DNA of 29,130 nucleotides from positions 1 to 29,130 of the forward strand of contig JAYVSD010000068.1 of the NCBI GenBank assembly GCA_043775745.1. Reading direction: 5' to 3'. The stretch's first letter is position 1. Every line of letters begins with the position of its first letter. The notes below the pieces were generated by a model that was not told the origin of the DNA, did no database searches, and was given only the letters and a program-made list of their open reading frames with translations. The DNA is from a bacterium. Its GTDB lineage: Bacteria > Patescibacteriota > Minisyncoccia > Phycocordibacterales > UBA5272. Below are positions 7,486 to 25,864 of this stretch, piece after piece. The translations under genes and the position numbers were made by a program.

Positions 7486-7502
7486 ATTATATATACGGTC
7501 GG
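7486..7502 (-). promoter_or_regulatory. CCGACC/-10 late promoter motif, leaderless, upstream of the fibre gene
   Basis: Minus strand CCGACC-GTATA-TATAAT-CTATCT-ATG(7479). Confidence 0.7.
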
Positions 7503-7539
7503 TATTTTAGTTGTCCACATAATTATACTTTCATAATTT

Positions 7540-7623
7540 ATGAATATAGCATATTATGCTAGTATGATTACATTTTTAATTATATTTGGTCTCTGGCTAT
7601 TCTTTTCTGGATTTGCTAGATAA
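7540..7623 (+). CDS. 27-aa single-TM small protein, antisense to the operon (not in the ORF track)
   Basis: Read manually: MNIAYYASMITFLIIFGLWLFFSGFAR*. Lies in the 157-bp gap between two large genes; TATACT at 7524-7529 upstream. Confidence 0.5.
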   Translation: MNIAYYASMITFLIIFGLWLFFSGFAR

Positions 7624-7636
7624 TATTATTTAGTTA

Positions 7637-9772
7637 CTATTTTTTATTAGCTTTATTCCAGATGTCTGTGAGTTGAGATCGGTTTGGCAATTTCACTCCA
7701 TAGTCTATAACTTGGTCATGTCCAAAAAATCGTTGAAGATATTGCGAACTTTGGTAGTCTTTCATCTTAATCACAGCACCATCATGCCCCATATCTAGTA
7801 CTTTTTGTTTTACATCTTCTATTATTGCCTTTTGTTTAACTGGGTTAGCATCATAAAGTGATGTTCTATTTGTAAGGTTTCTTAATTCTTGGTCTGTTGT
7901 AATGTATAATGGATTTTCTAATTTAACATTGTGTTCTGTGATATTTTTTCCATACCTACTGGCTTGACTTAAATCTGCATAGTATTTCCCCTCACCGAGA
8001 GCATTTCCTGCTTCTGGTCTTGATAATTGTAACCCCCCATTACCTTCTCCACGGTACATTGTTTTTTCAAATGGTATTCTTTGTGCTTTTATAAATTCCT
8101 CTGCACTCTTATATTTTTTAGCTTCATCTATTAAGTTTTTTTTTGATAAATCCTCACTAACTGCACCTAAATTAACTGAACCCTTCATTTTTTTTGTGTT
8201 ACTAACAATATCTTTTACATATCCATTAACATCGTACACACCATTATCTGCATTTAAAATTCCTCCTAGTGTTTTTTCACCAGCTTTACCAATAAATTCA
8301 ATACCCTTACCTGTCCTATAAAGTACTTGCCCTGCTATAGTTGCAATAGGAGTAACTGCTTGAGAATATATTTCTTGTACAAATGACCCCGCCCCACCTT
8401 TTAATTTAGACCCTGTCATCGCTGACTGCCCTAGTTTCTTTAAGTTTACAAGGTTCCCATAATCTATGTATGCTTGCCTAGATCCTTCTCCTAGAGAGTC
8501 ATATATTGTGGATCTTGCCTTGCTTGATAATAATGCTCTAACTTGTTGTAAAGCACCAGATACATCCTCCCCTTTATAAAATTTCTGTGGGACAAATTCT
8601 GCCCACCCTTCTTTTAATTTTTGTAATTTAGGCATAGTAACATTGATTATATCTTTATAATCTGTCTTAACTGCATCTAACGCTTCTAATAGACTTTTTT
8701 GCCTAGTCAATTCTGGTGTGCTTTTTATCAATTCATCTTCTATATTCTTAAAGAAGTCTTTGATATTTAATACACTATTACTTGATTGTAATCTTGGCTC
8801 TATTGCATCTTTCCATAGAGTAGACGCAGCCCTATTGGCTTGCACCCCTATCTGTGCTTTTGTACCAAATAGCCCTGGTAAAGTTTGTCCTGCTTTTGTA
8901 TCTATAGCTGTTTTTGATGTTGTCCTTGGTGTTTTACTGGTATCAGTTAGTATATTTGATATTCTCTCTATAAAAGTATTTATTGCTTGATAATTTTGTA
9001 ACACTTGAGCTTCTCTAGCACTCATCGGTATTGCTAAATCAACTAGCTTCTCACCAGCTTTCTTTACAAGCCTGCCTACTGGAGCTATGACAGGCAGTGC
9101 CGCCCCAATTGCTGTCCCTACACCTGGTGTAGCTTGATTCTCTGCGTTAGTACTTGCGTTATATGCTGTGTCGCCTAAATACCCTGCTGCTGCACCTCCT
9201 GCTACTTTTGAGGCTAGATTAGTTACACCCTCACTTGCTTTCAATGTCTTGGCTATTGTGCCACCCACTTTACCTGCTGTATTTATTAGACTAGTACCTC
9301 CTGTAGCTGGTATTGCTGCGATATTACCACCTATTATTCCTGCTGTGTATAATGCACTATTTTGATCCGCCCCCATAGTGTCTGCTAGTTGTGATTGTAA
9401 AGGCTTTGCCTGTGCTAAATTATCTAGCATTTGCTGTTTACTTATACCAGAGCTTTTAAATATAGCATTATTCTCATCTAGATTTTCTATAGCTTTTCTG
9501 CCTAGATAGTCTATTGCTGATAAAGCTATACCACCCACTCCATTTGCTACTCCTCCTGCTATATCTTTTGCACCTTGTGCTGTGACATCTACCACTGATT
9601 GAACATTGCTTTTTATTTGATTGGTTGGTGTATTCTCTACGTTAGAAAAGGCATCATTAAATAATTTTGACCTGTCTTGTGATCCTTTATCTGTAACCTC
9701 AGTCTCTGGTACAACTAATGACTGTTGATTATAATTGTATTTTTGTTTTATTTGTTCTAATTGATTATTCAT
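7637..9772 (-). CDS. Ejection or internal virion protein with C-terminal ADP-ribosyltransferase-like domain
   Basis: 711 aa. Gly/Ala-rich amphipathic mid-section typical of podoviral DNA-transfer proteins. The last ~165 aa contain MYRG...GEGKYY...A..YG...LENPLY...GHDG..I, resembling the ART-PolyVal type of domain. Confidence 0.6.
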   Translation of the reverse strand: MNNQLEQIKQKYNYNQQSLVVPETEVTDKGSQDRSKLFNDAFSNVENTPTNQIKSNVQSVVDVTAQGAKDIAGGVANGVGGIALSAIDYLGRKAIENLDENNAIFKSSGISKQQMLDNLAQAKPLQSQLADTMGADQNSALYTAGIIGGNIAAIPATGGTSLINTAGKVGGTIAKTLKASEGVTNLASKVAGGAAAGYLGDTAYNASTNAENQATPGVGTAIGAALPVIAPVGRLVKKAGEKLVDLAIPMSAREAQVLQNYQAINTFIERISNILTDTSKTPRTTSKTAIDTKAGQTLPGLFGTKAQIGVQANRAASTLWKDAIEPRLQSSNSVLNIKDFFKNIEDELIKSTPELTRQKSLLEALDAVKTDYKDIINVTMPKLQKLKEGWAEFVPQKFYKGEDVSGALQQVRALLSSKARSTIYDSLGEGSRQAYIDYGNLVNLKKLGQSAMTGSKLKGGAGSFVQEIYSQAVTPIATIAGQVLYRTGKGIEFIGKAGEKTLGGILNADNGVYDVNGYVKDIVSNTKKMKGSVNLGAVSEDLSKKNLIDEAKKYKSAEEFIKAQRIPFEKTMYRGEGNGGLQLSRPEAGNALGEGKYYADLSQASRYGKNITEHNVKLENPLYITTDQELRNLTNRTSLYDANPVKQKAIIEDVKQKVLDMGHDGAVIKMKDYQSSQYLQRFFGHDQVIDYGVKLPNRSQLTDIWNKANKK

Positions 9773-9776
9773 ATAA

Positions 9777-11360
9777 TTATTCTACTCCTAAAGCACTTAA
9801 TATTTCGCTACTTTTAGCACCTGTAGCTACCATTTCTTTTATCATTGCCTGTGCTCTTGGATTAGCTTTTCCATAAGAAATGACTCTATTATCATTTATA
9901 CCTGTATTATCATTTAAAGAATTTATTTTATTAGTTAATTGTTGATATAGTGGTACAAAGCCTGATACGTCTAACTTTGAAGCGGCAGCTACATCTAACC
10001 TAGACTTTACTCCGTTACGTAATGCAGTTAATGTTAAAGCCGTGACTGCATCATTTTGTTTTTGTGGGGATGTTAGATTTGGTAATGTCTGCGTGTATCT
10101 GGCTGTGTCTAAGTCAGTTAGCACTCCTACCTCTCCATATATACCTTTAGCCACTTGAGGGACTAGTGCTGTTATCTGTGCATTTATTGTGCCTGCGTCT
10201 GCGTTCTGCCCTATGCTAGCCATCAATGTTTTTACTTTACCACCGAAAAAGCCTGTTTGGTCCTTTTTTAGGTTTTCTTGTAAAGCTCCTATTTGGTCTA
10301 CTACTGCAAAGGATTTTGATATTGCTGATCTTTCTTCTGCCACTAGTGAAGCTTTGTTTACTGCACTATTTGTCCATGTAGACAAAGAGCTAGCGGTTGT
10401 ACCTAGTGGAGCGTTATTAGCTAGTGGTGTACTGGTAGATTTTATTTCTTGAATAACTTTCCTATACTCTGCATTTATTTTGTTTATTTGAGCGTTATTT
10501 TCTGCTATTTGGCTCTTCTTTAAGACATTTGATAGATAATCACCTGAATACACTCCTAGTATTTGTGCTGCCTCCGTGGGAGTTTTAGCTTTACTTGCTT
10601 TCTGCACAAGTGAGGATGGAGCCCCTTGTGAAGAAGCGTTTACTATCATAGTACTAACTTTTGTCTCGTCATCTTTTTGTTGGTCTATCATCTTTTGCTC
10701 TTGTTGATACTTCATCTGTAAAGCTTGTTTAGCTTTATCTTGAGCTGGTGATAAACTATATTTATCTAACGATGATAACTGTGTCATTTTACTATTCAAA
10801 TCTGCCTCTATTTGGCTATACTTTACTGCTATTTGCTGGTCTGCTAGATTTTTAGCTTTATTATAATTACCTTCTGCAACTGCCGCTTGTTGACCTAGTG
10901 CCAATGACTTGATAGCATTTAATCTTAAAGCCCCTGCCTCTTGTGGAGCTACACCTCTATCTGTAGCTCCTGTGCCTGCAGCATTTTGCTGCACTTGTAA
11001 TGGTATAGCACTAGCTTCATTCCTTAATCCTGTTAATTGAGCATTGATATCTTGTAATTGATTAAAAGATTGGTTTACTCCTGTATTATTATAAGTATTT
11101 AATGTATCCTGTGCTTTACCTCCTAGTTGAGATTGTAGTATTGATATATCATTAGTGCTTTGTTTAGATTGTGCTAGTTTTGCATCTGCCTCTTTTTGAG
11201 CATTCTGTGAGTCTACTAGAGCCTGAGAATACAAAGCATTCTGGTTTATAGCAGTTGTATATGTACTATTAGAGACATTCACTGGTCTGGGTATATTATA
11301 TAGCTGAGCTGATCCTAATTTTGAAGCGTCTACTACTGGAGATACATTACTATTTTGCAT
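9777..11360 (-). CDS. Ejection or internal virion (DNA transfer) protein
   Basis: 527 aa, Q/A/S-rich coiled coil with a C-terminal GEVGVLTDLDTARYTQTLP segment; located between the nozzle and fibre genes. Confidence 0.6.
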   Translation of the reverse strand: MQNSNVSPVVDASKLGSAQLYNIPRPVNVSNSTYTTAINQNALYSQALVDSQNAQKEADAKLAQSKQSTNDISILQSQLGGKAQDTLNTYNNTGVNQSFNQLQDINAQLTGLRNEASAIPLQVQQNAAGTGATDRGVAPQEAGALRLNAIKSLALGQQAAVAEGNYNKAKNLADQQIAVKYSQIEADLNSKMTQLSSLDKYSLSPAQDKAKQALQMKYQQEQKMIDQQKDDETKVSTMIVNASSQGAPSSLVQKASKAKTPTEAAQILGVYSGDYLSNVLKKSQIAENNAQINKINAEYRKVIQEIKSTSTPLANNAPLGTTASSLSTWTNSAVNKASLVAEERSAISKSFAVVDQIGALQENLKKDQTGFFGGKVKTLMASIGQNADAGTINAQITALVPQVAKGIYGEVGVLTDLDTARYTQTLPNLTSPQKQNDAVTALTLTALRNGVKSRLDVAAASKLDVSGFVPLYQQLTNKINSLNDNTGINDNRVISYGKANPRAQAMIKEMVATGAKSSEILSALGVE

Positions 11361-11366
11361 ATATGT

Positions 11367-11383
11367 AGTATATATATGGTCGG
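11367..11383 (-). promoter_or_regulatory. CCGACC/-10 late promoter motif, leaderless
   Basis: CCGACC-ATATA-TATACT-ACATAT-ATG(11360). Confidence 0.7.
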
Positions 11384-11387
11384 TAAT

Positions 11388-11636
11388 CTATGGAGCTATA
11401 ATACCGTAAGCCTTTAAAGCTGTTAGTAGTGTGGCTAGATCTGTGGCTGTTTGTTGTTGTACTGGCTCCTTTGTAAAAAATCCTATAGCTCCTTTTGTTT
11501 GAAAGTTTCTATAAAGTACCATTTTATTCGGGAAATTTTCTTTATTATATAAATTTATAATAACTTGAGTTTGTTGATACAAATCTTCAACTTTTTTACT
11601 TAATTCATATAGTTGCTGTTTTTCTTGTGGTGTCAT
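11388..11636 (-). CDS. Small tail-associated protein (start probably 11636 rather than 11666)
   Basis: N-terminal coiled coil and C-terminal IGFFTKEPVQQQ...LLTALKAYGII. The ATG at 11636 sits 1 nt after the upstream stop. Confidence 0.55.
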   Translation of the reverse strand: MTPQEKQQLYELSKKVEDLYQQTQVIINLYNKENFPNKMVLYRNFQTKGAIGFFTKEPVQQQTATDLATLLTALKAYGIIAP

Positions 11637-11637
11637 A

Positions 11638-13149
11638 TTAGTTTTCTGAAATTGTATCATACTCATATTGTATCTCTTCTATTTCTACATTATTTACAGC
11701 GTCTATTTGGAATGTAAAATATCTACCTACCTTAATGTTGCCACCCGTAGTATCTGAGTATACGTTTATTATGTTTTGACCAGATACATTTGTGTTTACA
11801 GACAAGACCACATCGGTGCTACCGTCGACGCTATACGAAAGTGTTGTAGTATTACCACTTGCATTATAACACTTATATATTACTTTGACTGATTTGACCA
11901 CTTTAAGGTCTGACCTATCTGCTATATTCATACCCATATTTTGAGATGTCCTATACACTGCATTATTATACCTAGCGATTGATGTGGTTACATCAGAGGC
12001 AGTTAGTATAAAAGACCCTCCAGTAGTTCTAAAAGCTATGTAGCAAATATCATTTACAAAACTTATATTTGATACAGAAGATATAGCATTGGCTACCGCA
12101 CCAATTGATCCGTCATATATCATATTCATGGTAGATATTGTATACTGCCCTGTACTATTTTTACCTACGGAGTGCAAAGCTGGATACCCGCCACAACCAA
12201 AATATAATCTATCTCTATATTTGGCTTTAGCTAATGTTGGGTTTGTTACATACGCAGAAGGTACTAATATGGATTTTATACTATCTAAATAGTCCCCCCC
12301 TCTATAAACTTTTATATCTATATATTTGTCTACTATAAAAGAACTATTTTCTGGCACAAAAACTAATACCAATTCGCCATTAAGATTTTCTATACATGTT
12401 ATTGCTCTTGTACCGCAATTTATTGACGCCTGTAATGTTGTTATAGACGTATCTCTCCCCCATAGTAATAACAAAGACTGTTGCCCCGCAAGTAAAGGGT
12501 TCATTGCAATAGCTAGATATCCACCAAAATTTGTTACAGATACTACTTTATACCCTGTCGGTAGTATACCCGTATGGCTTGAAAATGTTGTGGTGGCTAA
12601 ATTATATTTTGCTATAGTAGTACCAATACACATGTACAGTATTTTATCATCGGGGTGTATAAAGGGTCTAGGGTGGTAGGTATATGTAGATGTATCCGTA
12701 AAGCTTCCTACCACAGTTGTAACCCCCGCAGCCGTAAATGATTCAAGTCTGTATGTTGTAGGGGCTGCACCCGTAGCCGTCATTGCATAGGCAACTCCTC
12801 CATATTCAATATATGTACCCCCCGCAATGTTATAAGCACTTAAAGCTTGCTGTGAAGTAAAACTGCCATTTACTGATGTAGAAGCTCTCGTGTAAAAAGC
12901 TAGCCTAGCACTAACTGTAGTATTTTCACCCACGCCTACTAAATAGTCCGTGCCTGCAATTGTAGTTAATCCAACGTCATACATAGGGACACTATTTGTT
13001 GTCTCTTGTATTTGACTATATAATTTAATCAGTTTATCTTTTGATTTAAAAATATCAAAACCATAAGATAATTCACACTCATTTGTTGCTTTTGTAAGTA
13101 TATCTTCTGCATTTCCTCCATCAAATCTATTTATTATTACTTTTGCCAT
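11638..13149 (-). CDS. Tail nozzle or stabilisation protein (P22 gp10 / tail tubular B-like)
   Basis: 503 aa starting VIINRFDGG, with beta-propeller-like repeats (YGGVAY, FGGYLAIA, YRDRLYFG); position after the adaptor. Confidence 0.65.
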   Translation of the reverse strand: MAKVIINRFDGGNAEDILTKATNECELSYGFDIFKSKDKLIKLYSQIQETTNSVPMYDVGLTTIAGTDYLVGVGENTTVSARLAFYTRASTSVNGSFTSQQALSAYNIAGGTYIEYGGVAYAMTATGAAPTTYRLESFTAAGVTTVVGSFTDTSTYTYHPRPFIHPDDKILYMCIGTTIAKYNLATTTFSSHTGILPTGYKVVSVTNFGGYLAIAMNPLLAGQQSLLLLWGRDTSITTLQASINCGTRAITCIENLNGELVLVFVPENSSFIVDKYIDIKVYRGGDYLDSIKSILVPSAYVTNPTLAKAKYRDRLYFGCGGYPALHSVGKNSTGQYTISTMNMIYDGSIGAVANAISSVSNISFVNDICYIAFRTTGGSFILTASDVTTSIARYNNAVYRTSQNMGMNIADRSDLKVVKSVKVIYKCYNASGNTTTLSYSVDGSTDVVLSVNTNVSGQNIINVYSDTTGGNIKVGRYFTFQIDAVNNVEIEEIQYEYDTISEN

Positions 13150-13153
13150 ATAT

Positions 13154-13939
13154 TTAATGTTTAATTTTATTGGTTATATTAATAATAGCATTTTTTGCCC
13201 TATTTGTTATATTTGTAGCTGCTGTTTTTGTTTTTGGTGACCATACTGTCCTCCCCACCGCTATAATATTTACCACTACTCCAGATAAAATATACGCGGC
13301 AGTATCCATTGTCATTATTATTACTGGGGATATTACTACTACTATACCAGTCCAGTTGGTAGAGCTTGCTAACGACCAGTTTTGAGCCTGTGACGAGGGT
13401 GTTACCACTGGTCCACCAGTATCACCTATTGCTAGCACATTTGAGAACCTTGATGTAGTATTTGATCCTGCTATTCCTACACCTAAATTATTGGTAAAGG
13501 CTGAGACTACCCATGAGTTGGCGGATAGTGTAGTCACTGATACTGATAAATTGTTAGCTACAGTTGTTGATCCTGTATTATTTGCTGGTGGTGTTGTCTG
13601 GTTTACACCCGAGTATACTGCCCATATCATATTTGGGGAGCTAGCGGATGCATACGTATCTGCTACGGTTACATTTCCTGTTGCTGGTGCTATTCTGTAC
13701 CACAAAGATTGTGTATTTGCTCTAGTTGTTTGATTGACTGTAGCTATTTTTGTCATAGCCTGACCACCCCATGTGACTGAAGTCGGGTCGGTCGAAAGTC
13801 CTGGGCTATCGTATAAAACAAAAGCAATACCATTTGTAACGCTACTAACAGAGGCTAGACCATTTGCATTAAAGCTATGGGTGGTGTTACTCCCCCCTGA
13901 CGATGACCCTGTGGTCGCTTGTGAAAATGCTATTGCCAT
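13154..13939 (-). CDS. Ser/Thr-rich beta-sandwich virion protein
   Basis: 261 aa, low-charge S/T/A/V-rich sequence within the tail gene block. Confidence 0.55.
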   Translation of the reverse strand: MAIAFSQATTGSSSGGSNTTHSFNANGLASVSSVTNGIAFVLYDSPGLSTDPTSVTWGGQAMTKIATVNQTTRANTQSLWYRIAPATGNVTVADTYASASSPNMIWAVYSGVNQTTPPANNTGSTTVANNLSVSVTTLSANSWVVSAFTNNLGVGIAGSNTTSRFSNVLAIGDTGGPVVTPSSQAQNWSLASSTNWTGIVVVISPVIIMTMDTAAYILSGVVVNIIAVGRTVWSPKTKTAATNITNRAKNAIINITNKIKH

Positions 13940-13940
13940 A

Positions 13941-14348
13941 TTATGTTAATGTTAGTACACCATTGGTGCCGTCAAAATCAAGCAATACTGTGTCTCCAGA
14001 CACTAATGTTATATTACTTGCGTAATCATACCATCCTATAAGCTCTTTGTTTGTTGCTGTATCATTATATAATACGACATATCTAAACGGACCCACGGCT
14101 CCAGTTGCCGTTAGTGTTAGGTCGGATACTATCAATATGTATACTCCAGATGTCTGTATTGATGACGTTGTAGTTAATACTCTAGCTGAACAGTTTGTAT
14201 AGGATATTTCTGTGATATTAGCCAATACTGTATTTGTATTTACTGGAGCTGAATTAGTCAAAGCTATTTTTAAACTATCTGCACCTAAATTATGCACTTT
14301 TTCTGCTAAAGCTTCTGTGAATGAATTAAATTTATTAAATGTTGCCAT
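13941..14348 (-). CDS. Conserved phage virion structural protein
   Basis: MATFNKFNSF.E.LAEKVHNL..D.LKIALTN and GPFRYVVLYNDT...LIGWYDY resemble a widespread ~135-aa phage structural family. Confidence 0.65.
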   Translation of the reverse strand: MATFNKFNSFTEALAEKVHNLGADSLKIALTNSAPVNTNTVLANITEISYTNCSARVLTTTSSIQTSGVYILIVSDLTLTATGAVGPFRYVVLYNDTATNKELIGWYDYASNITLVSGDTVLLDFDGTNGVLTLT

Positions 14349-14352
14349 GTGT

Positions 14353-15090
14353 TTATCTTGAGCTTCTAAAGGCTGGTGTCATCATTTTTACTTCGTCTTT
14401 TGCTCTGGTGCTATAATAACTCTTGATATTTTCTTCCATTGCTAGCATATCTACTTTTAAAGATGCTGTCTGTGGTAATCCTTTTCTTAAACAGAATTGA
14501 TATGCTGGTCTGAACGCTACATATTCATGGAATACATCGGGTATACCTGGCTTTTTAGTCGTATCTGTAGACAAAAAGTAAGATGCTGTCCTATTGATAT
14601 ATATTGTTAATCCGCTAGTGTAGTTGTAGCTAGGTTTTGGGTATAGTATTATATCATTGCCTATCTTATCATAGTATTTTGGTATCCCTGCTGTTTTTAA
14701 ATATTCACTTAATGCTATTCCGCTTACATCATACTGATCAATTGGTATTAACTCTGACGCATACCCTGTAGAGTCTTTACACTCTACCCTGTAAATATCT
14801 AGCACTTGATTTGGTGTACTGCTACCATCTGTAGTAAAGGAATAATCTGCTTGATTAGCTACCACGTTAGCGTCTATTATAGGTGAATTAGTATGATTAG
14901 TATCGTCTACCTGCCACCTACCCTCTGCACTTTGTGCTAGTACAAAATAGTAAGCCAGAGTATTATTGGCGTCTCTTGTTTTTGTTGCTAAAGGATAGCT
15001 AGATGTTGTAGCACTTTGTGTACCTGTTAAGTCCTCTATGAGCTGTATTACACCAGTTCTATTTGTTGTATCGCTAAATTGCATTGACAT
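14353..15090 (-). CDS. Head-tail adaptor protein
   Basis: GIPKYYDKIGNDIILYPKP and PGIPDVFHEYVAF match podoviral adaptor-like motifs; first structural gene after the GT block. Confidence 0.65.
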   Translation of the reverse strand: MSMQFSDTTNRTGVIQLIEDLTGTQSATTSSYPLATKTRDANNTLAYYFVLAQSAEGRWQVDDTNHTNSPIIDANVVANQADYSFTTDGSSTPNQVLDIYRVECKDSTGYASELIPIDQYDVSGIALSEYLKTAGIPKYYDKIGNDIILYPKPSYNYTSGLTIYINRTASYFLSTDTTKKPGIPDVFHEYVAFRPAYQFCLRKGLPQTASLKVDMLAMEENIKSYYSTRAKDEVKMMTPAFRSSR

Positions 15091-15096
15091 GCTTTT

Positions 15097-15112
15097 AGTA
15101 TACTATGGTCGG
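15097..15112 (-). promoter_or_regulatory. CCGACC/-10 late promoter motif, leaderless, overlapping the GT2 stop
   Basis: CCGACC-ATAG-TATACT-AAAAGC-ATG(15090). Confidence 0.7.
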
Positions 15113-15795
15113 TATTTAGTATTATACTTATTCACAATATAATTTTGTAATAGTTGGCTATTTGGGTTAGCTGTCTGTTCACTCATATTATTACCATGTC
15201 TCCTCCACAATAAAGCTATATAATCTCCTACTACTGACTTATACCCTTTACATAGGCATTCTAGCCAAAATAGCCTATCCTCCCATCCTTTACGCATAGT
15301 CTCTGACTCGTCAAATCCTCCTACATCTACCCATGCTTGCTTTGGAAATAAACTGTTAGAATATATAACATTTGTTTTTAACAGGATCTCTACTGTAGCT
15401 ACTCTTGGTCTTGCTGTGTAATTATCTTTACCAAAAGCCATGAGCCCTAGTGTGACTATACTGTTATTATCAATTAACTCTAGGTGCTTTTCTACCGCTT
15501 CTGGTCTTAATATATCATCAGCATCAAATGAAAAACAATACTGTGATGTACTTGCTTTTATACCTGTATTTCTTGCACCTGATAATCCTTTGTTTTTATC
15601 ATGTTTTATATATATTACTTTTGGGTATTTATCACATATAGCCTTTGGATTGTCTGTAGAGCAGTCGTCTACTACTATTACCTCATCTGGGACTCTAGTC
15701 TGTGTGAATACACTCTCTAATGCTTTGTCTAAATAGTGTGCATAGTTGTATACTGGCATTATACAAGCCACTGTCTTATAAGAATAATCCTGCAT
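15103..15795 (-). CDS. Glycosyltransferase family 2
   Basis: IMPVYNYAHYL..ALESV..Q...EVIVVDDCSTD, GLSGARNTGI, FDADD and GWED are canonical GT-A motifs. Confidence 0.92.
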   Translation of the reverse strand: MQDYSYKTVACIMPVYNYAHYLDKALESVFTQTRVPDEVIVVDDCSTDNPKAICDKYPKVIYIKHDKNKGLSGARNTGIKASTSQYCFSFDADDILRPEAVEKHLELIDNNSIVTLGLMAFGKDNYTARPRVATVEILLKTNVIYSNSLFPKQAWVDVGGFDESETMRKGWEDRLFWLECLCKGYKSVVGDYIALLWRRHGNNMSEQTANPNSQLLQNYIVNKYNTKYRP

Positions 15796-16504
15796 ATTTT
15801 TGTTTATTATCTAATAAATATTGTGGTAAGTCACTTTCATCTTTTCTCATGTCTATCTCTCTATTATTCCACACACCCCCATCTTCGTATATTGGGTGTT
15901 GAAAAGCTTTCTGCTTTCTCTTTTTACCACCTATAGCATTGAAGTGCCACCCACCATTGTCTAGTACATCATAGCTTGTCATACTATCTGTTCTTAAATG
16001 ATTGATAACACCACTTTTTATATGTTTATACCTGCAAGCTATAGTACCTGTCCACCCTAACCAATCTTCACTAGTCCTTTGATTAAAATAGTATAGATAA
16101 GGTAATTGTTTTGGCTTATATATTACATCTTCACTATATTGTAGTAATGGGTTCCATATCTCATCTACATCTGATATAAATATTAAGTCATCATCATCAC
16201 AATTTATAAGGGCTTCTCTTACACTTTCTTTCTGTGCCCACTCTCTCACCCAGTAATGCTCTCCGTTGCCTGTATTTGGACTTTTGAGGGCTTCCTTTAC
16301 CATTTCTGGTGTATCGTCCATTATAAAGTATTCGATGTTATAATTGGCATATTTTGACTTATCAAAAGTTAGTTTCTTTTTTACTCCACTAAAGGTCTTT
16401 TCTGCCTCACAGATTATAAACTTATCCACATATGGTGCAAGTATGTTTAATCTCACATCTAATACCTCGCTCTCTCCATTATAATAAAATAGGTCTATTA
16501 TCAT
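15776..16504 (-). CDS. Glycosyltransferase family 17 (MGAT3-like beta-1,4-GlcNAc transferase family)
   Basis: LDVRLNIL..YVDKFIICEAEKTFSG, DDLIFISDVDEI and GWHF are GT17 signatures. Confidence 0.85.
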   Translation of the reverse strand: MIIDLFYYNGESEVLDVRLNILAPYVDKFIICEAEKTFSGVKKKLTFDKSKYANYNIEYFIMDDTPEMVKEALKSPNTGNGEHYWVREWAQKESVREALINCDDDDLIFISDVDEIWNPLLQYSEDVIYKPKQLPYLYYFNQRTSEDWLGWTGTIACRYKHIKSGVINHLRTDSMTSYDVLDNGGWHFNAIGGKKRKQKAFQHPIYEDGGVWNNREIDMRKDESDLPQYLLDNKQKYAGLFL

Positions 16505-17094: not shown

Positions 17095-17651
17095 ATATGA
17101 TATAAGTTACGTTCTATTAAATAGGCCTCCCCTGGTGTTTCATGCCAGTCACAAGCATCTCTTAATTTGATATAAAATTCCTTTGGATGTTTTAATATAT
17201 TTGCTTTGGGGATTATGTAACATCCACCGGGTGCAAACTTATTATACAGCCTCTTTTCCATATCTAGCATCTTTTTTAGTTTCTCAGTACTATTAATATT
17301 TTTAGTTGGATGTTCTAGTAAGTACCAATAATCATTTAACTCACAATATACACCGTCCTCATACCAGCATATAGGCTCGTACACAGCATGATTTTGTGTT
17401 AGCAAAGGTGTAAATACTTTATTATTCTTTACTTTATCAAACTCTTCTTTGCTTATATGTCTTTCTAGCATGTTTGTTTTACCGAAAAGCATTATTTCTG
17501 GTAAATTCTCATAGTTATCAACAATATAACACATATAATCATATATATTCGATCCCACATTTTTATCTTTCTTATCATAGAATATAGCATTTTTTGTATA
17601 TTCTTCTACCCATTCTCTATTGTGATGATAGTCATTCATTATCCATTGCAT
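17076..17651 (-). CDS. DUF3431-like protein
   Basis: NVG....Y..YIVDNYENLPEIMLF, FAPGGCYII.K..I..HPKEFY..L and AYLIER..YHIW follow the DUF3431 pattern. Confidence 0.75.
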   Translation of the reverse strand: MQWIMNDYHHNREWVEEYTKNAIFYDKKDKNVGSNIYDYMCYIVDNYENLPEIMLFGKTNMLERHISKEEFDKVKNNKVFTPLLTQNHAVYEPICWYEDGVYCELNDYWYLLEHPTKNINSTEKLKKMLDMEKRLYNKFAPGGCYIIPKANILKHPKEFYIKLRDACDWHETPGEAYLIERNLYHIWTLQH

Positions 17652-17655
17652 ATAT

Positions 17656-18441
17656 TTACTTAATTATTTCACCATTATTTTTTAACCAGTCCCACCCCTC
17701 TACATAGTTTTGTGTTAGTAACCAATAGTTTTTATTATACCTACCAAAGCCCCATGGAGCTATTACTCTTTTTACACTTTCATTTAGAAAGGCTGGCAAT
17801 ATAGCGAATGATGAATTTGATAGTATTAAATACTTTGAGTATCTTATAGCTCTCCAATTTATACCCATGTCTTGTATAATCGGATAGTCAGGGAAAAACT
17901 TTGACGCCTCTTCTTTGTCATCTGTATGCACTACAAATTGCATGTCGCTATTAGTTTTTAACATTTCTTTTACTGCCATATCAAAGTAGTTTTTAGGCAA
18001 AAAGAAGTCCGCTACATATTTATACTCTCCTCCTCTAAAGTTTATTACACATACATTTTCTGGCATATCAAGAAAATCTACCTTTAGCCACTTTCGCACC
18101 GCTGCTTTCCTGTGTTTGAAATAGTCTATTCCTTGTAGCCACCCGTGTATAAGTGTATTATCTTCTATATCTTTAAACTTGGGGTCGTAGTCTTGTGTCT
18201 CTTCTTTGTACCAGTGATCTATAGTGTCTGGTAACACTTCTGGATGTTGTCCCTCCACATTTGACTTGCCACCCATTACTATCTCGCCAAAATTTAAAGT
18301 CATAAATGAGTGCCCTTTGAAGTTCTCTGGGTATTGTATCCCAAATTTATATCCTTTATCTGAGGCTAGGCATCTAGTCGCTACATAGTTGGCTAGCTGA
18401 TTGCCTAACCCACTACCAGTGTACATTGTGGTTACTAACAT
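17656..18441 (-). CDS. Glycosyltransferase family 11 (alpha-1,2-fucosyltransferase-like), divergent
   Basis: GLGNQL, GWLQGIDYF, INFRGGEY (in place of HVRRGDY) and ILSNSSF. Confidence 0.8.
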   Translation of the reverse strand: MLVTTMYTGSGLGNQLANYVATRCLASDKGYKFGIQYPENFKGHSFMTLNFGEIVMGGKSNVEGQHPEVLPDTIDHWYKEETQDYDPKFKDIEDNTLIHGWLQGIDYFKHRKAAVRKWLKVDFLDMPENVCVINFRGGEYKYVADFFLPKNYFDMAVKEMLKTNSDMQFVVHTDDKEEASKFFPDYPIIQDMGINWRAIRYSKYLILSNSSFAILPAFLNESVKRVIAPWGFGRYNKNYWLLTQNYVEGWDWLKNNGEIIK

Positions 18442-18941
18442 GGTATTAGAACTGTTAGCCCATTATTATTTGTATATTTATCTTTTACTTTCCATTCCTT
18501 TAACTCCTCTACCGCCTGCCATAATTCTGGGCAAGACGTTGTATCATGTAATACTATATACTTCTTAACTTTACTAGCATGTAATTTTAGCTCTTGTGAT
18601 AACTGATCGTAGGTATGTAAAGTATCTACAAATAACAAGTCTACTTCGTCTATTTCTATATCTAGTGTACTTGCTTGAATAAAGTTAAAGTCAATTGACT
18701 TTTCTTTACATATTGATACTACTTTATCAAAGGACTCTTTGCCACCTTGTGGTGCATACTCTGATGGATGTTTTATATCTATGCAAGTTAACTTTTTAGG
18801 ATTACCTTCTATAAAAGCCCATGTACTCACACAATACCTGACCCCCATCTCTGTTATGCTATCACACTCTTTTGCTAATTCTGCCAGTACTGGTAAATGT
18901 TCATTTATATCGCTTGCCGTGTTACATAGTTGTTTATACAT
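18435..18941 (-). CDS. Class I SAM-dependent methyltransferase (Methyltransf_24-like)
   Basis: DINEHL..L, EMGVR...ST, DLLFVDTLHTY and IVLHDT. Confidence 0.8.
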   Translation of the reverse strand: MYKQLCNTASDINEHLPVLAELAKECDSITEMGVRYCVSTWAFIEGNPKKLTCIDIKHPSEYAPQGGKESFDKVVSICKEKSIDFNFIQASTLDIEIDEVDLLFVDTLHTYDQLSQELKLHASKVKKYIVLHDTTSCPELWQAVEELKEWKVKDKYTNNNGLTVLIPC

Positions 18942-19515
18942 ATTTTTTTCTTAAAAAAGATCCTTCCTTTTCTTTTTCTTCATTAGTTAATAAATTTGTA
19001 GCTTGATGTTCTCCTACTCCTACTGTTATATGGTCTCCTCTCAAGATTATAGGCTCTCCATATTCTCTGTACATCCTATAATAAAAATCACAATCTAATA
19101 GCCATTTTAAGTCTTCATCAAACCTCACCTTTACATCTTTATGTATTGTTAAAGCCGACGGACTACCAATCTTATTATTACCTTGTAATATATCGCCTGT
19201 GTACTTTGGATCGAGATTATCATTACAGCCCACCACAAGCCATTTTTTGCCTTTTGGGAAGGCTTTAGCAATCAATTCTAGTGTGTGCTTATTAGTAAAA
19301 TAATCATCCATGTACATTATCTTGATAATATCGCCATTACATTTGTTTATGGCATTGTTGGTATTCTGTGACGCGTTGCCCTCGCTTGTGATTATTACTT
19401 CAATATCTTTATATGTCTGTTCTTCAATAGAGTTTAAAAGCCTTGCCATAAAGTAATTAGCATTCCTCATCTTTGAATAATAGGGTATAGCTATTGATAT
19501 CATAATTTTATCCAT
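18934..19515 (-). CDS. Glycosyltransferase family 2, short (start possibly 19503)
   Basis: ISIAIPYY, N.NNAI..C.GDIIKIMYMDD, IGSPS and LLDCDFYYRM. Confidence 0.8.
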   Translation of the reverse strand: MDKIMISIAIPYYSKMRNANYFMARLLNSIEEQTYKDIEVIITSEGNASQNTNNAINKCNGDIIKIMYMDDYFTNKHTLELIAKAFPKGKKWLVVGCNDNLDPKYTGDILQGNNKIGSPSALTIHKDVKVRFDEDLKWLLDCDFYYRMYREYGEPIILRGDHITVGVGEHQATNLLTNEEKEKEGSFLRKKYV

Positions 19516-20045
19516 TCTTTAGGGCATACAGTCCTTTCTACTCCGTCTGTGTACCATTGTTTTGGTGCTATTATCAATGTAGCTTTAGATAAATAAGCCC
19601 CCCACCAAGAAAAAGAGCTATTTGCTATTATTATACCCTTGCAACTAGCAATAATATTTAAATCTTGTACCTCATCCTTGCCTTTAGAGAAAGAACACCC
19701 TTTAAATATTTCTTGTTTCTTACACCATTCTATGTCATCAGAAAATACCATAAAGCTAGCACCCAAGAACATGCTCATGGCTTTCTTATAATAGTCTGTT
19801 TTTGATAAGTCCACATAGTAACTATTATTTACATAGTCACCTCTCCTCACATGTATAGCTACTTTGTCTATCTTGCCTATGTGGTCTCCGTACAACATCT
19901 TTATGCTATCTTTGTAACTTTCAAAGTACTTTGGATCTTGCAAATATATATCTGTTATCTCACCTTTTCTCATCTGAGAATAGATATAAGCCATTTGAAA
20001 CATTCTATTCCCTAGCCTGCCAAATAGTTTATCTAGTGAAATCAT
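19500..20045 (-). CDS. Glycosyltransferase family 11 (alpha-1,2-fucosyltransferase-like), compact
   Basis: GRLGNRMF, AIHVRRGDY, FSDDIEWCK and ANSSFSWWGAYL are canonical GT11 motifs. Confidence 0.9.
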   Translation of the reverse strand: MISLDKLFGRLGNRMFQMAYIYSQMRKGEITDIYLQDPKYFESYKDSIKMLYGDHIGKIDKVAIHVRRGDYVNNSYYVDLSKTDYYKKAMSMFLGASFMVFSDDIEWCKKQEIFKGCSFSKGKDEVQDLNIIASCKGIIIANSSFSWWGAYLSKATLIIAPKQWYTDGVERTVCPKEWIKL

Positions 20046-20046
20046 T

Positions 20047-20526
20047 TTATTTTGCTTTTCTAATTTCTTTTACCTTTTCCTCTATCTCATCTCTAACTTC
20101 TACTAAATACTTATTATCTACTATTTTTAATTCTATAGCTTTTTCAAATTCTCCTAGCTCTGGCTTTACCAAGTCATTAACTATTTTATTTATTTTACTT
20201 TCTACCAAATCTATTTTCTGTTGTACTTTCTCTACTTCTTCTATTTTTAGCTTGTAGGCTTCAACTAAAGGTCTCATTTCCTCTTTTAAGGGTATTAGTT
20301 GGCTTTCTAAAGGTCTTATCTGCTCGTAAAACTTCTCTAAGGGGACTTCCTGTTCACTCATCTGGTCTAGTAAAGGCTTCTTCTCATTTTCCATAATAAC
20401 TAGTTTCTCTTGATGGAGCTTTGCCACAGTCTCGTCGTTTATTTCAATAATTCTTGTACCTGTGTAATTTTTTTCGTCTAAATATTCTTTGGGTATTTGC
20501 ATAAAATCTCTATTTGTTTTTGCCAT
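20047..20526 (-). CDS. Acidic coiled-coil protein with Pro-Leu-initiated repeats
   Basis: 159 aa, E/K-rich; PLLDQ/PLEKF/PLESQ/PLKEE/PLVEA series. The start may be the second Met (MQIPKEY). Confidence 0.65.
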   Translation of the reverse strand: MAKTNRDFMQIPKEYLDEKNYTGTRIIEINDETVAKLHQEKLVIMENEKKPLLDQMSEQEVPLEKFYEQIRPLESQLIPLKEEMRPLVEAYKLKIEEVEKVQQKIDLVESKINKIVNDLVKPELGEFEKAIELKIVDNKYLVEVRDEIEEKVKEIRKAK

Positions 20527-21545
20527 TCACTGGCGTAATTTTTAATTGAATAATTTTCTAACACATAATCATGAGCTTTATTGGCTAATCGCCGATATTT
20601 CTCATGATTATTCTTTATTTCCACGACCATATTATACCACTCGTTATTATCTGTAACAAGTGTACAATAGTCTTTATTCTGTTGATAAGGTGATAACCCG
20701 TCTGAAAATGATTGTGCTAATACTGGTATTCGTAATAATGACATCTCTAAAAACTTCAAGTTGCTTTTACATTTATTAAAATAGTGATCTTTCCTAGGTA
20801 TTATTACTAAATCCAGTGCTAGCTTGGATATATTGTACATATAGTCCGTTACATTACACAACGGGTGCCATTCCACATTGTTAAGTGATTGCCAAAAGTC
20901 TAAGTCTTCTTGCATAGAGCTTGCCAAAAGCTTACCATTTGCTAATTTAACACCCATGACCACTATAGTTATATCATTTCTATCGTCTAGTTGTTTAATC
21001 TGTTCTTTAATATGGAAATAATCGTCATTTGTAGTCACTGATCCTATAAACCCTATACGGAACTTACTTGTTATATTAACTTTACATTTAAACTCGTCAT
21101 TTGGGTCTATGGTGTTCTTTAGCACCACTGTATTTTTGTTTATTTTACTGTATTCTTCTTTTAATATTTCTGTAGATGTAGTTATACCATGAGCTATTTT
21201 GCAAAACTCATTTAAGTTATTGTTTAGCTCTTTGGCTATTTCTACCTGTTTATTATTACCTAGTCTATGTAAAGGTATACCAGAATAGGTGTCATCATTA
21301 TCCATGATTATATATTTCCCTTTTGATTTTAATAGTTTTGCTAACTGTAGAGAGTTATTCCCTGTTGGTCTTTGAAAGCATACTATATCTGCCCTCATCG
21401 CTTTTTTTGTTAGCTCTTCTGCATTTTGTGTTGTGCCACTATTGATAAATTCTGATATTACTTGCTGATTAGAATAAACCCCAGGTAAATATCCTCTATA
21501 GTAGTAACAAAAATTATAATCTCCTTGTATATATAATATATTCAT
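20478..21545 (-). CDS. Glycosyltransferase, GT-B fold (GT4-like)
   Basis: CYYYRGYLP, ADIVCFQR, IMDNDD, RIGFIGS and DLVIIP...FNKCKSNLKFLE. Confidence 0.85.
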   Translation of the reverse strand: MNILYIQGDYNFCYYYRGYLPGVYSNQQVISEFINSGTTQNAEELTKKAMRADIVCFQRPTGNNSLQLAKLLKSKGKYIIMDNDDTYSGIPLHRLGNNKQVEIAKELNNNLNEFCKIAHGITTSTEILKEEYSKINKNTVVLKNTIDPNDEFKCKVNITSKFRIGFIGSVTTNDDYFHIKEQIKQLDDRNDITIVVMGVKLANGKLLASSMQEDLDFWQSLNNVEWHPLCNVTDYMYNISKLALDLVIIPRKDHYFNKCKSNLKFLEMSLLRIPVLAQSFSDGLSPYQQNKDYCTLVTDNNEWYNMVVEIKNNHEKYRRLANKAHDYVLENYSIKNYASEWQKQIEILCKYPKNI

Positions 21546-21871: not shown

Positions 21872-21877
21872 ATTATA
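21872..21877 (-). promoter_or_regulatory. -10 box for a leaderless transcript of the GT block (no CCGACC)
   Basis: TATAAT-GTATAT-ATG(21865). Confidence 0.55.
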
Positions 21878-21878
21878 T

Positions 21879-21907
21879 AAACAAAAACACCCCCTGTAAA
21901 GAGGTAT
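21879..21907 (-). terminator. Putative intrinsic terminator after the capsid gene
   Basis: Minus strand ATACCTCTT-TAC-AGGGGGTGT stem (three G-U pairs) followed by TTTTGTTT. Confidence 0.55.
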
Positions 21908-21927
21908 CTTTGTTTTTCTGTGGATAA

Positions 21928-22875
21928 CTATAGTCCTACAGCCAAGCTGTGACTTCTGATTTTAACGGCAGAGTCAACCCTATTCTGTACTACACCAAAA
22001 CATAAGTCTACGGTAACTAGTTCACCTAGATACTCTTGAATGTATGATTGCTGTACACGCACACCTTCGCTACCTACAAAGCCCATATCCGCTTTAACTG
22101 GCATTGACATGCGAGCCCAGTGGATAGAGTCATTGTGTGCTAGCATATTAAGCCTAGCGGAGTTCTCACCTACTGCACCAGCTCCTAGTGGAACAGCTGG
22201 AGACACTATAACGGGGATACTGTACAATGACCTTGTAGGTGCTTTTGTACGAGGTAGCTCTGTCTGTGTATTCTGCCATAGTGTAAGCTTATCTACAGAG
22301 CCAATTTGTCTGTAGAAAGTGTTAGGATGGAATATCCATGCTACATCACCACCGTATACTGGTACACCTGTAGTTTCAAGTATAGAGATCGCGGCTAATA
22401 GTGAGGAGTCTGCTATATTGCTACCAGCAGTACCCAATATTTGATTAGCTACCGTAAAGTTAGTAAACTGTGCTGCAATAGCGTCATCTAGGTCTTGAGC
22501 TACTTCCCAAGCACAAGCTTTTGCAAACTTATCTTGTAAGTAGTAGCTTTTCTTTAGTTGAGCCATTTCTCTATCTTCGATAACAAAACTTGACTCTTTC
22601 CATGTTGATACAGTCAAAGTTACTTTTGTCTGTATAGGATTATTAAGAGTCACCTGTGTGTTATTAGCTTTAACAGTAGTCGCCATAGCCACTATATTAG
22701 GAGTGTATACGTCTGATCCACCATCCACTAACTCCTCACTTCTATCAATAAAGAACTGAGCTAAAGATAGATTGTATCTAAAGTAGTCATTTATTTTCTG
22801 CCCCCACAATAACGGAATATCTGCTGTAAGAGAGCCTCCTACACCACCACCCATTTGATTTGAGCCTAATGCCAT
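21928..22875 (-). CDS. Major capsid protein (HK97 fold; P22-coat/N4-gp56-like)
   Basis: 315 aa after the scaffold gene; IP.LWGQKI, G.DVYTP, AWEVAQDLDDAI and VDLCFGV...R pattern. Confidence 0.85.
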   Translation of the reverse strand: MALGSNQMGGGVGGSLTADIPLLWGQKINDYFRYNLSLAQFFIDRSEELVDGGSDVYTPNIVAMATTVKANNTQVTLNNPIQTKVTLTVSTWKESSFVIEDREMAQLKKSYYLQDKFAKACAWEVAQDLDDAIAAQFTNFTVANQILGTAGSNIADSSLLAAISILETTGVPVYGGDVAWIFHPNTFYRQIGSVDKLTLWQNTQTELPRTKAPTRSLYSIPVIVSPAVPLGAGAVGENSARLNMLAHNDSIHWARMSMPVKADMGFVGSEGVRVQQSYIQEYLGELVTVDLCFGVVQNRVDSAVKIRSHSLAVGL

Positions 22876-22883
22876 ATATTTAT

Positions 22884-23381: not shown

Positions 23382-23471
23382 GAAATGATAATTGGTTAAA
23401 CGTTGTGACGCAACGATACGCTTTTGTTAATCGTTTTTTTGCGGAGATGAACGATAACTCTTGCTTTATAT

Positions 23472-23487
23472 AATATAATATGGTCGG
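23472..23487 (-). promoter_or_regulatory. CCGACC/-10 late promoter motif upstream of scaffold-capsid (about 85-nt leader)
   Basis: CCGACC-ATAT-TATATT, starting right after the TAG at 23488-23490. Confidence 0.6.
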
Positions 23488-23842: not shown

Positions 23843-23843
23843 A

Positions 23844-24080: not shown

Positions 24081-24088
24081 ATGTATAT

Positions 24089-24104
24089 ATTATACTGCGG
24101 TCGG
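24089..24104 (-). promoter_or_regulatory. CCGACC/-10 late promoter motif overlapping the portal stop
   Basis: CCGACC-GCAG-TATAAT-ATATACAT-ATG(24080). Confidence 0.6.
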
Positions 24105-25841
24105 TGCGGTTGTGGCTTGTGCACTCATTGATGTTGGCTCTGCCCCTGTAGATGATAGCTGTATAGATGAGAATGGCACTCCTGACATTTCTATTATCTG
24201 TCCGAATATCTTTTTAAGTATAGGATCTTCTAACGCACCGTATTTGCCTGTCTGTTGATTATATGTGGATATAACTGTCTTAAATATAGAGTCGAGTGAT
24301 TGTAGTATCGCCCCTTTATTCTTTAGCTCTCCTGTGATATTTGCTGTTATCTTTCCCTCTATGTCTAGATAACCTTTAGGTATCTTTAGCTCTCTTTTCT
24401 TCCCATACTTACTAGCTAAAGTCTGTTTTGCCTGTGCCATGAGCATTTCCTGCTCTCCATTCTGGATTATGTCGCCTGCTAGTATTTTATCTACCATATG
24501 ATTATTTGTATGAGTAGTAGCTATATCTTTATCTATCATGTCTAATTCCTCGTCGGAGAAGTCTGATACCATGCTGTGGTCTGATAATATCTTATCTTTT
24601 AGATAAGGCAATACCCAATCATTGAGTATACTATTAAGCCATATACCCCATACCTCCTGTTGATACTGGAATGGTGAGTTAGCTACTTGATTAAGTATTT
24701 GTGTCTGACCTAGTGGTGTGCCTGATGGTGGCTGCTCTCCTGTATTGGCGTCGTATGTTGATGATATGCGATTATACTCATTTGAGAATTGTGTTATCAT
24801 ATTTTCAAATGCTGGTATAGAGGTTGTGGATAGCTGAAATGCGTCTAGTGTCTCATTTTGCTTTAATTCAAAGTGGTGCCCATTGTCTACTCCTACTATG
24901 GCATTCCCTATACCTTTGACATTGCCTTTAGTAAACACTTTACCTGATAGATCCAGTGCATTTTTAAGTTGTATATACTGATCATTTATCCATACTTGTG
25001 ATTGAAAGCCCTCTTCCCATACACCACGTCCTAGACTATTGCCTATCTTTTCCCATGCTAAATATTTGTATTTACTTTCATCCTCCTTTAAATCCTCTTT
25101 ATATAGTAAAAACTTTTTATCTCCTACTACAGCTAGATAAAAACACATTGTTTTATACTTGGTGTCATTTTTGTCATTTTCCTTTAAGTCTGGATCAAAG
25201 CTGTATGGGAATTCGCCTGTTACTTCTTTTATTTCTATTGCTCTGGGTTTATTTTTATTGACTTTACTATGTATCTTTACAGCGTCCTCTATGCTATCAT
25301 ACCCTGTCCATATGTCTACTTTCTCCATTAAGTCTGATATAGACATATAGTGTGTCTCTATGATTGGTGACCCCATTATATCATTAGGACTGAAATCAAC
25401 GTTTACCCAATCTACCACATCTACACATAGCTCGTCATCATCCTCATACTTTTTAACTAACACACCCCCATATTTTGGTCTAGTAAGCCCTATATCATTA
25501 AGAGTCTGAGAAAAGTTAGAGTCTTTTAAATATTTAAATAGCTCATGATTGATAATCATAGCTTCTGTTGCATACTCTAGTGTATCTGGCTCATACTTTA
25601 TGTCTTTTACATCTATATCTGTAGCTGTCTTTGCTACCCTTACTCTTGAGTTACCATGATTGATAAAAGGTTTTTCTCTCCCTAGTGCGTCTTTATCTCC
25701 TGATAGGTATTGATCCATTGAATAAAACTCTACTGTATGTATTATATCTTTAGGGTTTCTTACCAGTCCTGATATTCTTTCTGCTGGCTCATTGTATGAG
25801 TCTATAATATCATCAATATACGTTTTTATTTTATAATCCAT
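24090..25841 (-). CDS. Portal protein
   Basis: 583 aa directly after terL; YGGVLVK, GRGVWE and GEQPPSGTPLGQTQIL segments typical of podoviral portals. Confidence 0.85.
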   Translation of the reverse strand: MDYKIKTYIDDIIDSYNEPAERISGLVRNPKDIIHTVEFYSMDQYLSGDKDALGREKPFINHGNSRVRVAKTATDIDVKDIKYEPDTLEYATEAMIINHELFKYLKDSNFSQTLNDIGLTRPKYGGVLVKKYEDDDELCVDVVDWVNVDFSPNDIMGSPIIETHYMSISDLMEKVDIWTGYDSIEDAVKIHSKVNKNKPRAIEIKEVTGEFPYSFDPDLKENDKNDTKYKTMCFYLAVVGDKKFLLYKEDLKEDESKYKYLAWEKIGNSLGRGVWEEGFQSQVWINDQYIQLKNALDLSGKVFTKGNVKGIGNAIVGVDNGHHFELKQNETLDAFQLSTTSIPAFENMITQFSNEYNRISSTYDANTGEQPPSGTPLGQTQILNQVANSPFQYQQEVWGIWLNSILNDWVLPYLKDKILSDHSMVSDFSDEELDMIDKDIATTHTNNHMVDKILAGDIIQNGEQEMLMAQAKQTLASKYGKKRELKIPKGYLDIEGKITANITGELKNKGAILQSLDSIFKTVISTYNQQTGKYGALEDPILKKIFGQIIEMSGVPFSSIQLSSTGAEPTSMSAQATTAPTAV

Positions 25842-25847
25842 AAAAGT

Positions 25848-25864
25848 ATTATATATATGGTCGG
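25848..25864 (-). promoter_or_regulatory. CCGACC/-10 late promoter motif, leaderless, upstream of the portal
   Basis: CCGACC-ATATA-TATAAT-ACTTTT-ATG(25841). Confidence 0.7.

Follow-up and report, generated by a model that had tools for sequence, protein, structure and literature searches.

The middle promoters of phage T4 carry a MotA box at -30 and work by AsiA-mediated sigma appropriation. To our knowledge, almost nothing is known about gene control in phages of the Candidate Phyla Radiation (CPR)/Patescibacteria, or about the initiation of transcription and translation in these bacteria. Here we describe contig C68 (29,130 nucleotides, hereafter the window), an entire contig of a 551-kb, 107-contig genome bin, on which a short element, the CCGACC box, stands just upstream of a -10 hexamer at six sites. 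In phage P1, Lpa (gp10) binds a conserved sequence centred at -22 and needs the host protein SspA (PMC3152322). In the annotated P1 genome, the promoters LPsit, LP23, LP26 and LPpac consist of a 9-bp '-22 region' (AAaTGACTa), 4 nt and a -10, and lpa lies directly upstream of pacA, under a sigma70 promoter. The Ltr activators of Gram-positive phages (RinA, ArpU, LtrA-C) are small, sigma-region-4-like proteins that are encoded just upstream of terS and control morphogenesis and lysis genes (PMC3152322).

We consider it reasonably probable that the six sites of the window are phage-specific promoters read by the host RNA polymerase, and that the box docks a phage factor, probably P0001, a 108-amino-acid protein with tandem helix-turn-helix (HTH) domains.

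Geometry of the box sites and of host-type promoters

The motif CCGACC-N{4,5}-TATAHT had six matches in the window, all on the minus strand, which carries all genes of the contig. They are listed with the box, the -10, the distance between the -10 and the start codon, and the start codon.

25848-25864, minus strand: portal promoter; box 25859-25864, -10 TATAAT 25848-25853, 6 nt, ATG 25841
24089-24104, minus strand: promoter of the genes for a 78- and a 74-amino-acid protein; box 24099-24104, -10 TATAAT 24089-24094, 8 nt, ATG 24080
23472-23487, minus strand: promoter of the scaffold and major capsid operon; box 23482-23487, -10 TATATT 23472-23477, scaffold ATG 23381
15097-15112, minus strand: promoter of the head-tail adaptor block; box 15107-15112, -10 TATACT 15097-15102, 6 nt, ATG 15090
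11367-11383, minus strand: promoter of the genes for a 527- and a 711-amino-acid protein (presumed internal or ejection proteins); box 11378-11383, -10 TATACT 11367-11372, 6 nt, ATG 11360
7486-7502, minus strand: promoter of the genes for a 1390-amino-acid protein, five small proteins and the lysin; box 7497-7502, -10 TATAAT 7486-7491, 6 nt, ATG 7479

No match occurred in 100 dinucleotide-preserving shuffles, and a motif search of the whole bin found no further copy in the other 106 contigs. The 522 kb of host DNA hold no properly spaced box, and two loose, chance-like matches with a 13-14-nt spacer. A preliminary description, made from the sequence alone, had placed six copies at these positions, with 6 nt between the -10 and the ATG in four of them and 8 nt in one, and both statements were borne out. 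It had also noted two copies that overlap upstream coding ends. These are the promoter at 24089-24104, which overlaps the portal stop codon, and that at 15097-15112, which overlaps the last codons of the glycosyltransferase gene 15103-15795; the portal promoter occupies the 25-nt gap following the TerL stop. Two CCGACC words that it had listed as lacking a -10 (13786-13791 and 14120-14125) do lack one, and are the only other copies on the coding strand.

At 5/6 sites a TAnnnT hexamer lies 6-8 nt before the start codon, without a Shine-Dalgarno sequence, and the box spans about -23 to -18 relative to the start predicted from this geometry. CCGACC and its flanks are asymmetric and occur in a single orientation. 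TG at -15/-14 is found at none of the six sites and in none of the relatives with the N5 spacer, whereas about 75% of host promoters have it. A generic sigma70 promoter scan scored 0/6 box sites as -35/-10 promoters, and the same scan did detect the promoters of terS and of a 106-amino-acid protein gene in this form.

Of 363 long host open reading frames (ORFs), 56 have a TATAAT at precisely 6 nt from the ATG, and 6% have a Shine-Dalgarno-like word. The host promoter logo (91 sites) reads T-A-T-G-n-TATAAT-N6-ATG, with T at -15 in 75/91 and G at -14 in 68/91; at -35 there is only a weak TTG, and at -23 to -18 there is nothing. We counted 64 exact copies of TGNTATAATNNNNNNATG in the bin, versus one of the reversed control, and 60-86 copies in each of the three other genomes of the genus. 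Outside the genus, 15 of 17 related genomes have 3-24 copies and the other two have 0, and the controls in related genomes gave 0-2. Because TGnTATAAT-N6-ATG is enriched and Shine-Dalgarno sequences are nearly absent, the host lineage appears to use extended -10 promoters yielding leaderless mRNAs widely. The literature search found no paper describing predominantly leaderless mRNAs for CPR bacteria. The leaderless geometry of the preliminary description thus gains support, as it is the geometry of the host promoters.

The contig also holds promoters of host type:

27730-27738, minus strand: P0001 promoter, extended -10 TGgTATAAT (sequence)
27386-27414, minus strand: promoter of the terS-like gene, TTTACA-N17-TATAAT, 6 nt, ATG 27379 (promoter scan; no box)
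27068-27418, minus strand: terS-like ORF (DUF5681), listed from TTG 27418
21872-21900, minus strand: promoter of the 106-amino-acid protein gene, TTTACA-N17-TATAAT, 6 nt, ATG 21865 (promoter scan)

The box sites are a second, phage-specific promoter class, because they are without TG and -35 while the contig also holds these host-type promoters. The promoter at 27386-27414 likely drives terS-terL without a box. Because a TATAAT lies 6 nt before it, ATG 27379 is probably the true, leaderless terS start (ORF 27068-27379), giving a shorter protein that begins MQEDTE. The promoter at 21872-21900 follows the capsid terminator (21891-21904) and heads the 106-amino-acid protein gene and a block of glycosyl- and methyltransferase genes. 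Because they use host-type promoters, the terminase genes and this glycosylation block are outside the box regulon. The earlier proposal that each structural module is switched on separately therefore agrees with the six units and does not extend to these genes.

The remaining bin is a Patescibacteria genome. It holds a bacterial 16S, and its EF-Tu is 75-80% identical to that of Kaiser-, Campbell-, Nomurabacteria and Paceibacterota metagenome-assembled genomes. The tetranucleotide usage of C68 is within the range of the host contigs, and no spacer or identity matches were found between C68 and the other contigs of the bin. The link between phage and host rests on the shared promoter style, the absence of Shine-Dalgarno sites, composition and binning.

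In the mechanism that we propose, the host holoenzyme would read the sigma-A-type -10 (TATAMT), and transcription would begin on or next to the A of the ATG, because the -10-to-start distance equals that of the host's leaderless promoters. The box, (A/T)AA(T)-CCGACC-A, would dock the phage factor and so compensate for the absent TG and -35. Host-type promoters would express P0001, terS-terL and the glycosylation block in a first step. P0001 would then activate the portal gene, the genes for the 78- and 74-amino-acid proteins, scaffold-capsid, the adaptor block, the 527- and 711-amino-acid proteins, and the genes from the 1390-amino-acid protein to the lysin. These units would be activated separately, and all except scaffold-capsid would be leaderless.

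Conservation of the box and its candidate activator

Scans with the portal, adaptor, HTH and capsid proteins gave about 100 related contigs. In the capsid tree, the box occurs within a well-supported clade of 35 rows, with phages from groundwater, sediment and Antarctic lakes; the uncultivated relatives that keep it before the same genes have capsids 69-90% identical. The preliminary description had named missing conservation before orthologous genes as evidence against its proposal. In at least 11 distinct relatives, we found the box ahead of the orthologous portal, scaffold and adaptor genes. It is present at the TerL/portal junction of L010/L112, L195, L011, L012/L122, L124, L118, L127, L143, L150, L157 and G001, and before the adaptor gene of L010, L012, L143, L145/G001 and L157. 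The promoter at 24089-24104 is not conserved in the relatives and is therefore the least certain of the six.

The clade consensus is (A/T)AA(T)-[C/T]CGACC-A, which is replaced by GTGACC in a single lineage (L130, L138, L141/L142). The box itself (CCGACC/TCGACC) is constant, and the sequence of the spacer is not. The distance between box and -10 is fixed within a genome and differs among lineages: it is 5 nt in the subclade of the window (4 nt in three window sites), 11 nt in L118, L127, L126 and L198 and also for GTGACC in L138 and L141/142, and 13-14 nt in G001, L143, L150, L157 and L130. The -10-to-start distance is 6-8 nt across the relatives, including the GTG portal start of G001. At the same junctions, box-less outgroups or members carry TGgTATAAT (L151, L131), TGtTATAAT (L144) or TTGCAa-N17-TATACT (L025). 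Because box-less relatives have host-type promoters there, the comparison argues that these positions are promoters with an exchangeable upstream half.

In the lineages with 11-14-nt spacers, the scaffold promoters carry a perfect TTGACA 3-5 nt upstream of the -10 (L118:5664, L126:384, L198:851, L113:8860, L143:9330, L150:7844, L130:3202), and the portal and adaptor promoters are without it. This TTGACA sits where CCGACC sits in the subclade of the window.

G001 (the same as L199) is a complete relative of 37,085 bp. Its portal gene apparently starts with GTG, 7 nt past a TAGCAT -10 (L113:5625 / G001 19258-19295). Such a leaderless start at a codon other than AUG would be unusual, since leaderless initiation normally requires AUG.

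Among the box-driven units, only the scaffold-capsid operon has a leader, of about 90 nt (23382-23471) between the -10 and ATG 23381. Box and leader are conserved upstream of scaffold in about 20 relatives. We compared the leader at window 23382-23471 (minus strand), L180:756-844, L195:8921-9010, L112:13007-13098 and L122:5947-6035, leaving aside the rows L153 and L158, and found that its hairpin GTTATCGTT...AACGATTAAC shows a compensatory CG to AU change in two relatives. The leader has no Rfam match. It may act in cis as a regulatory RNA of the genes with the highest expression.

The candidate for the binding protein is encoded in front of the terminase genes:

27387-27713, minus strand: P0001, 108-amino-acid tandem-HTH protein (domain search and model)

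Pfam places HTH_7 and HTH_23 at residues 6-41 of P0001 and Sigma70_r4 at 62-91. The predicted model has two three-helix HTH domains joined by a flexible linker, and its best structural matches, all weak, are the monomeric bipartite HTH domains of Cbp1, IstA, Tc3 and Pax. The N-terminal HTH resembles sigma70 region 4 as well as HTH_7; P0001 has only region-4-like HTHs, without sigma region 2. The family (96-114 amino acids) is encoded in front of the terminase genes, and wherever a box-bearing locus extends upstream of TerS/TerL, a profile search found a member. None was found in the box-less outgroups L151 and L153, in which 3 kb upstream of TerL are present, and the host bin has no other member. 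The N-terminal HTH is kept down to about 20% overall identity, with the recognition helix T-[TS]-T-[IV]-W-[DE]-N. For the C-terminal half there are two forms, a second HTH and a CxxC...CxxC zinc ribbon. In the relatives, TGnTA..AT lies 6-9 nt before the P0001 orthologue or the next gene.

The gene order P0001 - terS - TerL is the same in the relatives, and the P0001 gene persists in those with other TerS and TerL types, so it is not tied to packaging. We rejected P0001 as a part of the small terminase, as it is kept with swapped TerS/TerL types, including one TerS with an HTH of its own. P0001 belongs to no named family. In an NCBIfam scan, 11 members of the family had no match to RinA/ArpU models, and only weak, sub-threshold sigma-region-4 and HTH matches. 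The hhalign probability for P0001 versus Lpa was 0.2%, and none of 30 window proteins put through Pfam matched PF25716 (the Lpa family), a model that P1 Lpa itself matches. The preliminary description had proposed either a phage activator or a modified sigma. The former is now favoured, as a conserved HTH protein travels with the box, and the latter is not, as no sigma was found in the window or the scanned G001 ORFs. P0001 is the best candidate for the activator.

A more specific role is conceivable, although we regard it as doubtful. The P0001 family could be a free-standing, sigma-region-4-like '-35 reader', whose invariant HTH would read the -35-like CCGACC (GAC being the core of TTGACA) and dock on the host polymerase, usable at 5, 11 or 14 nt from the -10. 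If true, this would amount to sigma appropriation by a single protein, arisen in phages whose CPR hosts have a minimal transcription machinery and mostly leaderless mRNAs.

Alternative explanations and gene context

Several points weigh against activation of the box promoters by P0001. The start sites are predicted from sequence, and run searches found the window in two DNA runs (sediment metagenomes) only, with no RNA run listed. The box position, -23 to -18, is the usual location of a repressor. Confidence in the P0001 model is moderate (predicted local distance difference test, pLDDT, 70), and its structural matches are weak. The co-occurrence of HTH protein and box is that of one capsid-tree clade, roughly one evolutionary event. 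The contigs with GTGACC boxes end before the HTH gene, and a further scan gave no longer ones. In the G001 lineage both TGn and the box are present, so that the box is no substitute for TG there. Finally, spacings of 5, 11 and 14 nt are not whole helical turns apart, which is awkward for one fixed contact between activator and polymerase.

The repressor-like position is the starting point for reading the box as an operator, on which a phage repressor (P0001 or another protein) would silence constitutive -10 promoters until late, in the style of the stoperators of mycobacteriophage L5. The overlap with the core promoter, the asymmetric, single-orientation box in short intergenic gaps, and the G001-lineage promoters, whose TGn extended -10 could work unaided, all fit this explanation. 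However, the sites of the window's subclade lack the TG and -35 on which host promoters rely, and at this junction box-less relatives do have TG. The box keeps a fixed spacing within each genome, whereas stoperators show no phasing to a -10, and no integrase was found among the long ORFs of G001 (short ORFs in 5.9-8.2 kb were not scanned). We therefore regard an operator as unlikely. It is more unlikely still that the host reads the box directly and without any phage protein, by sigma-A/core polymerase through a 'Z-element'-like spacer contact, by an alternative sigma or by another host factor. In its favour, the -10 and start geometry follow the host pattern, the canonical -35 TTGACA likewise has GAC at its core, and the bin has one Sigma70_r2 match only, on host contig C19, so that the host repertoire is small and poorly known. 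Yet the 522 kb of host DNA lack a properly spaced copy, the host logo is blank at the box position, and a fixed polymerase contact would not tolerate a spacing that varies among phage lineages.

An element acting on RNA, that is, a processing, stability or translation signal on a read-through transcript next to an incidental AT-rich hexamer, has little probability in our view. As all genes point the same way and terminators are few, any read-through RNA must include the motif, and operon-internal genes without Shine-Dalgarno sequences need some route to translation start. But the hexamer fits TAnnnT, and its distance to the ATG is exactly that of host promoters. Most internal genes lack the motif and begin by overlap or tight coupling, and there is no complementary GGTCGG partner. 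We hold a promoter of a phage RNA polymerase or sigma to be very improbable. In a T7-like arrangement, CCGACC would be the specificity element and the AT-rich part the melting region; T7-class promoters, with CGAC at -12 to -9 and TATA before +1, resemble the motif, and about 8 kb of early genes are absent from the window. Against this, the scanned window proteins gave no match to a domain of an RNA polymerase or sigma factor. Those ORFs of the complete 37-kb G001 that were scanned include no RNA polymerase, sigma factor, DNA polymerase or other evident regulator, and the 8 kb upstream in L010/L112 hold only ORFs of up to 287 amino acids. A variable box-to-(-10) distance combined with a constant -10-to-ATG distance fits sigma-A and not a rigid single-subunit promoter.

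Contig C68 is the virion and lysis portion of a small podovirus-like phage. Besides the genes given above, it carries:

25867-27093, minus strand: TerL, terminase large subunit, confirmed by domain search
21928-22875, minus strand: major head protein, confirmed by domain search
15103-20045, minus strand: glycosyl-/methyltransferase gene block (Pfam)
14353-15090, minus strand: SU10-type head-tail adaptor (Pfam)
629-1828, minus strand: papain-like, peptidoglycan-binding lysin (domain match)

The gene identities are thus confirmed in part, for TerL, the major head protein and the adaptor (of SU10 type). The labels 'ejection' for the 527- and 711-amino-acid proteins and 'fibre' for the 1390-amino-acid protein remain guesses from position. 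The transferase block, between capsid and adaptor, encodes GT11, GT2, GT17, FkbM- and CmcI-like methyltransferases and DUF3431, and an equivalent ORF block occupies this position in L010, L012 and G001. Two ORFs between the 106-amino-acid protein gene and this block (20047-21545) have no Pfam match. The left end of the window (1-628) looks foreign compared with the remaining contig. Its G+C content is higher, its two small genes have ribosome sites of AGGAG or GGAG type, and the sole plus-strand CCGACC of the window lies here, at 310-315.

The early region of G001 (10388-17055) has many small genes with a repeated 3'-end word such as CTCCCTAGACA (encoding ...SLDK), together with two YopX genes, a WDGH-domain gene, a pentapeptide-repeat protein and a 656-amino-acid DNA methylase. 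Rfam and tRNA scans of the window gave no match, and neither megablast (6 kb) nor tblastn (P0001) found a match among GenBank phages. The portal profile found no relative in a search of one genome per species, so there is no prophage copy that ties the phage to a named host.

Comparison with known promoter systems

The preliminary description had called a GC-rich element so close to the -10, in place of a -35, not a standard sigma70 layout. The layout has a precedent in the P1 late promoters, the closest known design. They too have a -10 without a -35, and their conserved element, with its centre near -22, is separated from the -10 by about 4 nt. In both phages several such promoters occur, one per late block, and the (candidate) activator gene lies directly upstream of the packaging genes under a sigma70-type promoter; the box words are also alike (P1 AAGTGACTT and the relatives' variant AAGTGACCA). 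However, an inverted repeat of 9 bp forms the P1 element and the present box is asymmetric, and P0001 is unrelated to Lpa. The P1 late-gene leaders that we looked at are at least 29 nt long, whereas the transcripts here would be leaderless, and relatives of this phage place the box 11 or 14 nt from the -10. Because the box is asymmetric, the protein unrelated and the transcripts apparently leaderless, the present system works like the P1 late promoters and is not a member of that family.

Like the Ltr activators, P0001 is sigma-region-4-like and encoded directly upstream of terS, but it matches no RinA/ArpU model. The Ltr systems have one late promoter upstream of terS, whereas here a host-type terS promoter is followed by six box promoters downstream, and RinA needs sequences more than 155 bp upstream. 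The T4 middle promoters share with the window a host -10 combined with a phage-specific box that replaces the -35, and in relatives with 11-14-nt spacers the box lies at about -32 to -24, near the position of the MotA box. In contrast, no MotA/AsiA domain was found in the window proteins scanned, the window box is much closer to the -10, and the transcripts would be leaderless. With the promoters of the Patescibacteria host, the box promoters share the -10 consensus, the 6 nt to the ATG and the lack of a Shine-Dalgarno sequence; the host has TG at -15/-14 and a weak TTG at -35, and the box promoters have neither.

The locus offers two concrete elements that can be tested together, the 6-bp box near -20 and the HTH protein of roughly 100 amino acids, both conserved in the clade. 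Should their pairing be confirmed, it would provide organisms that lack genetic tools with a compact orthogonal expression switch, and would be a second, independently evolved case of the unusual P1-type '-22' late promoter. What sets this phage apart is the location of the box near -20, a spacing that differs by lineage, the tandem-HTH candidate and its match to a largely leaderless host.

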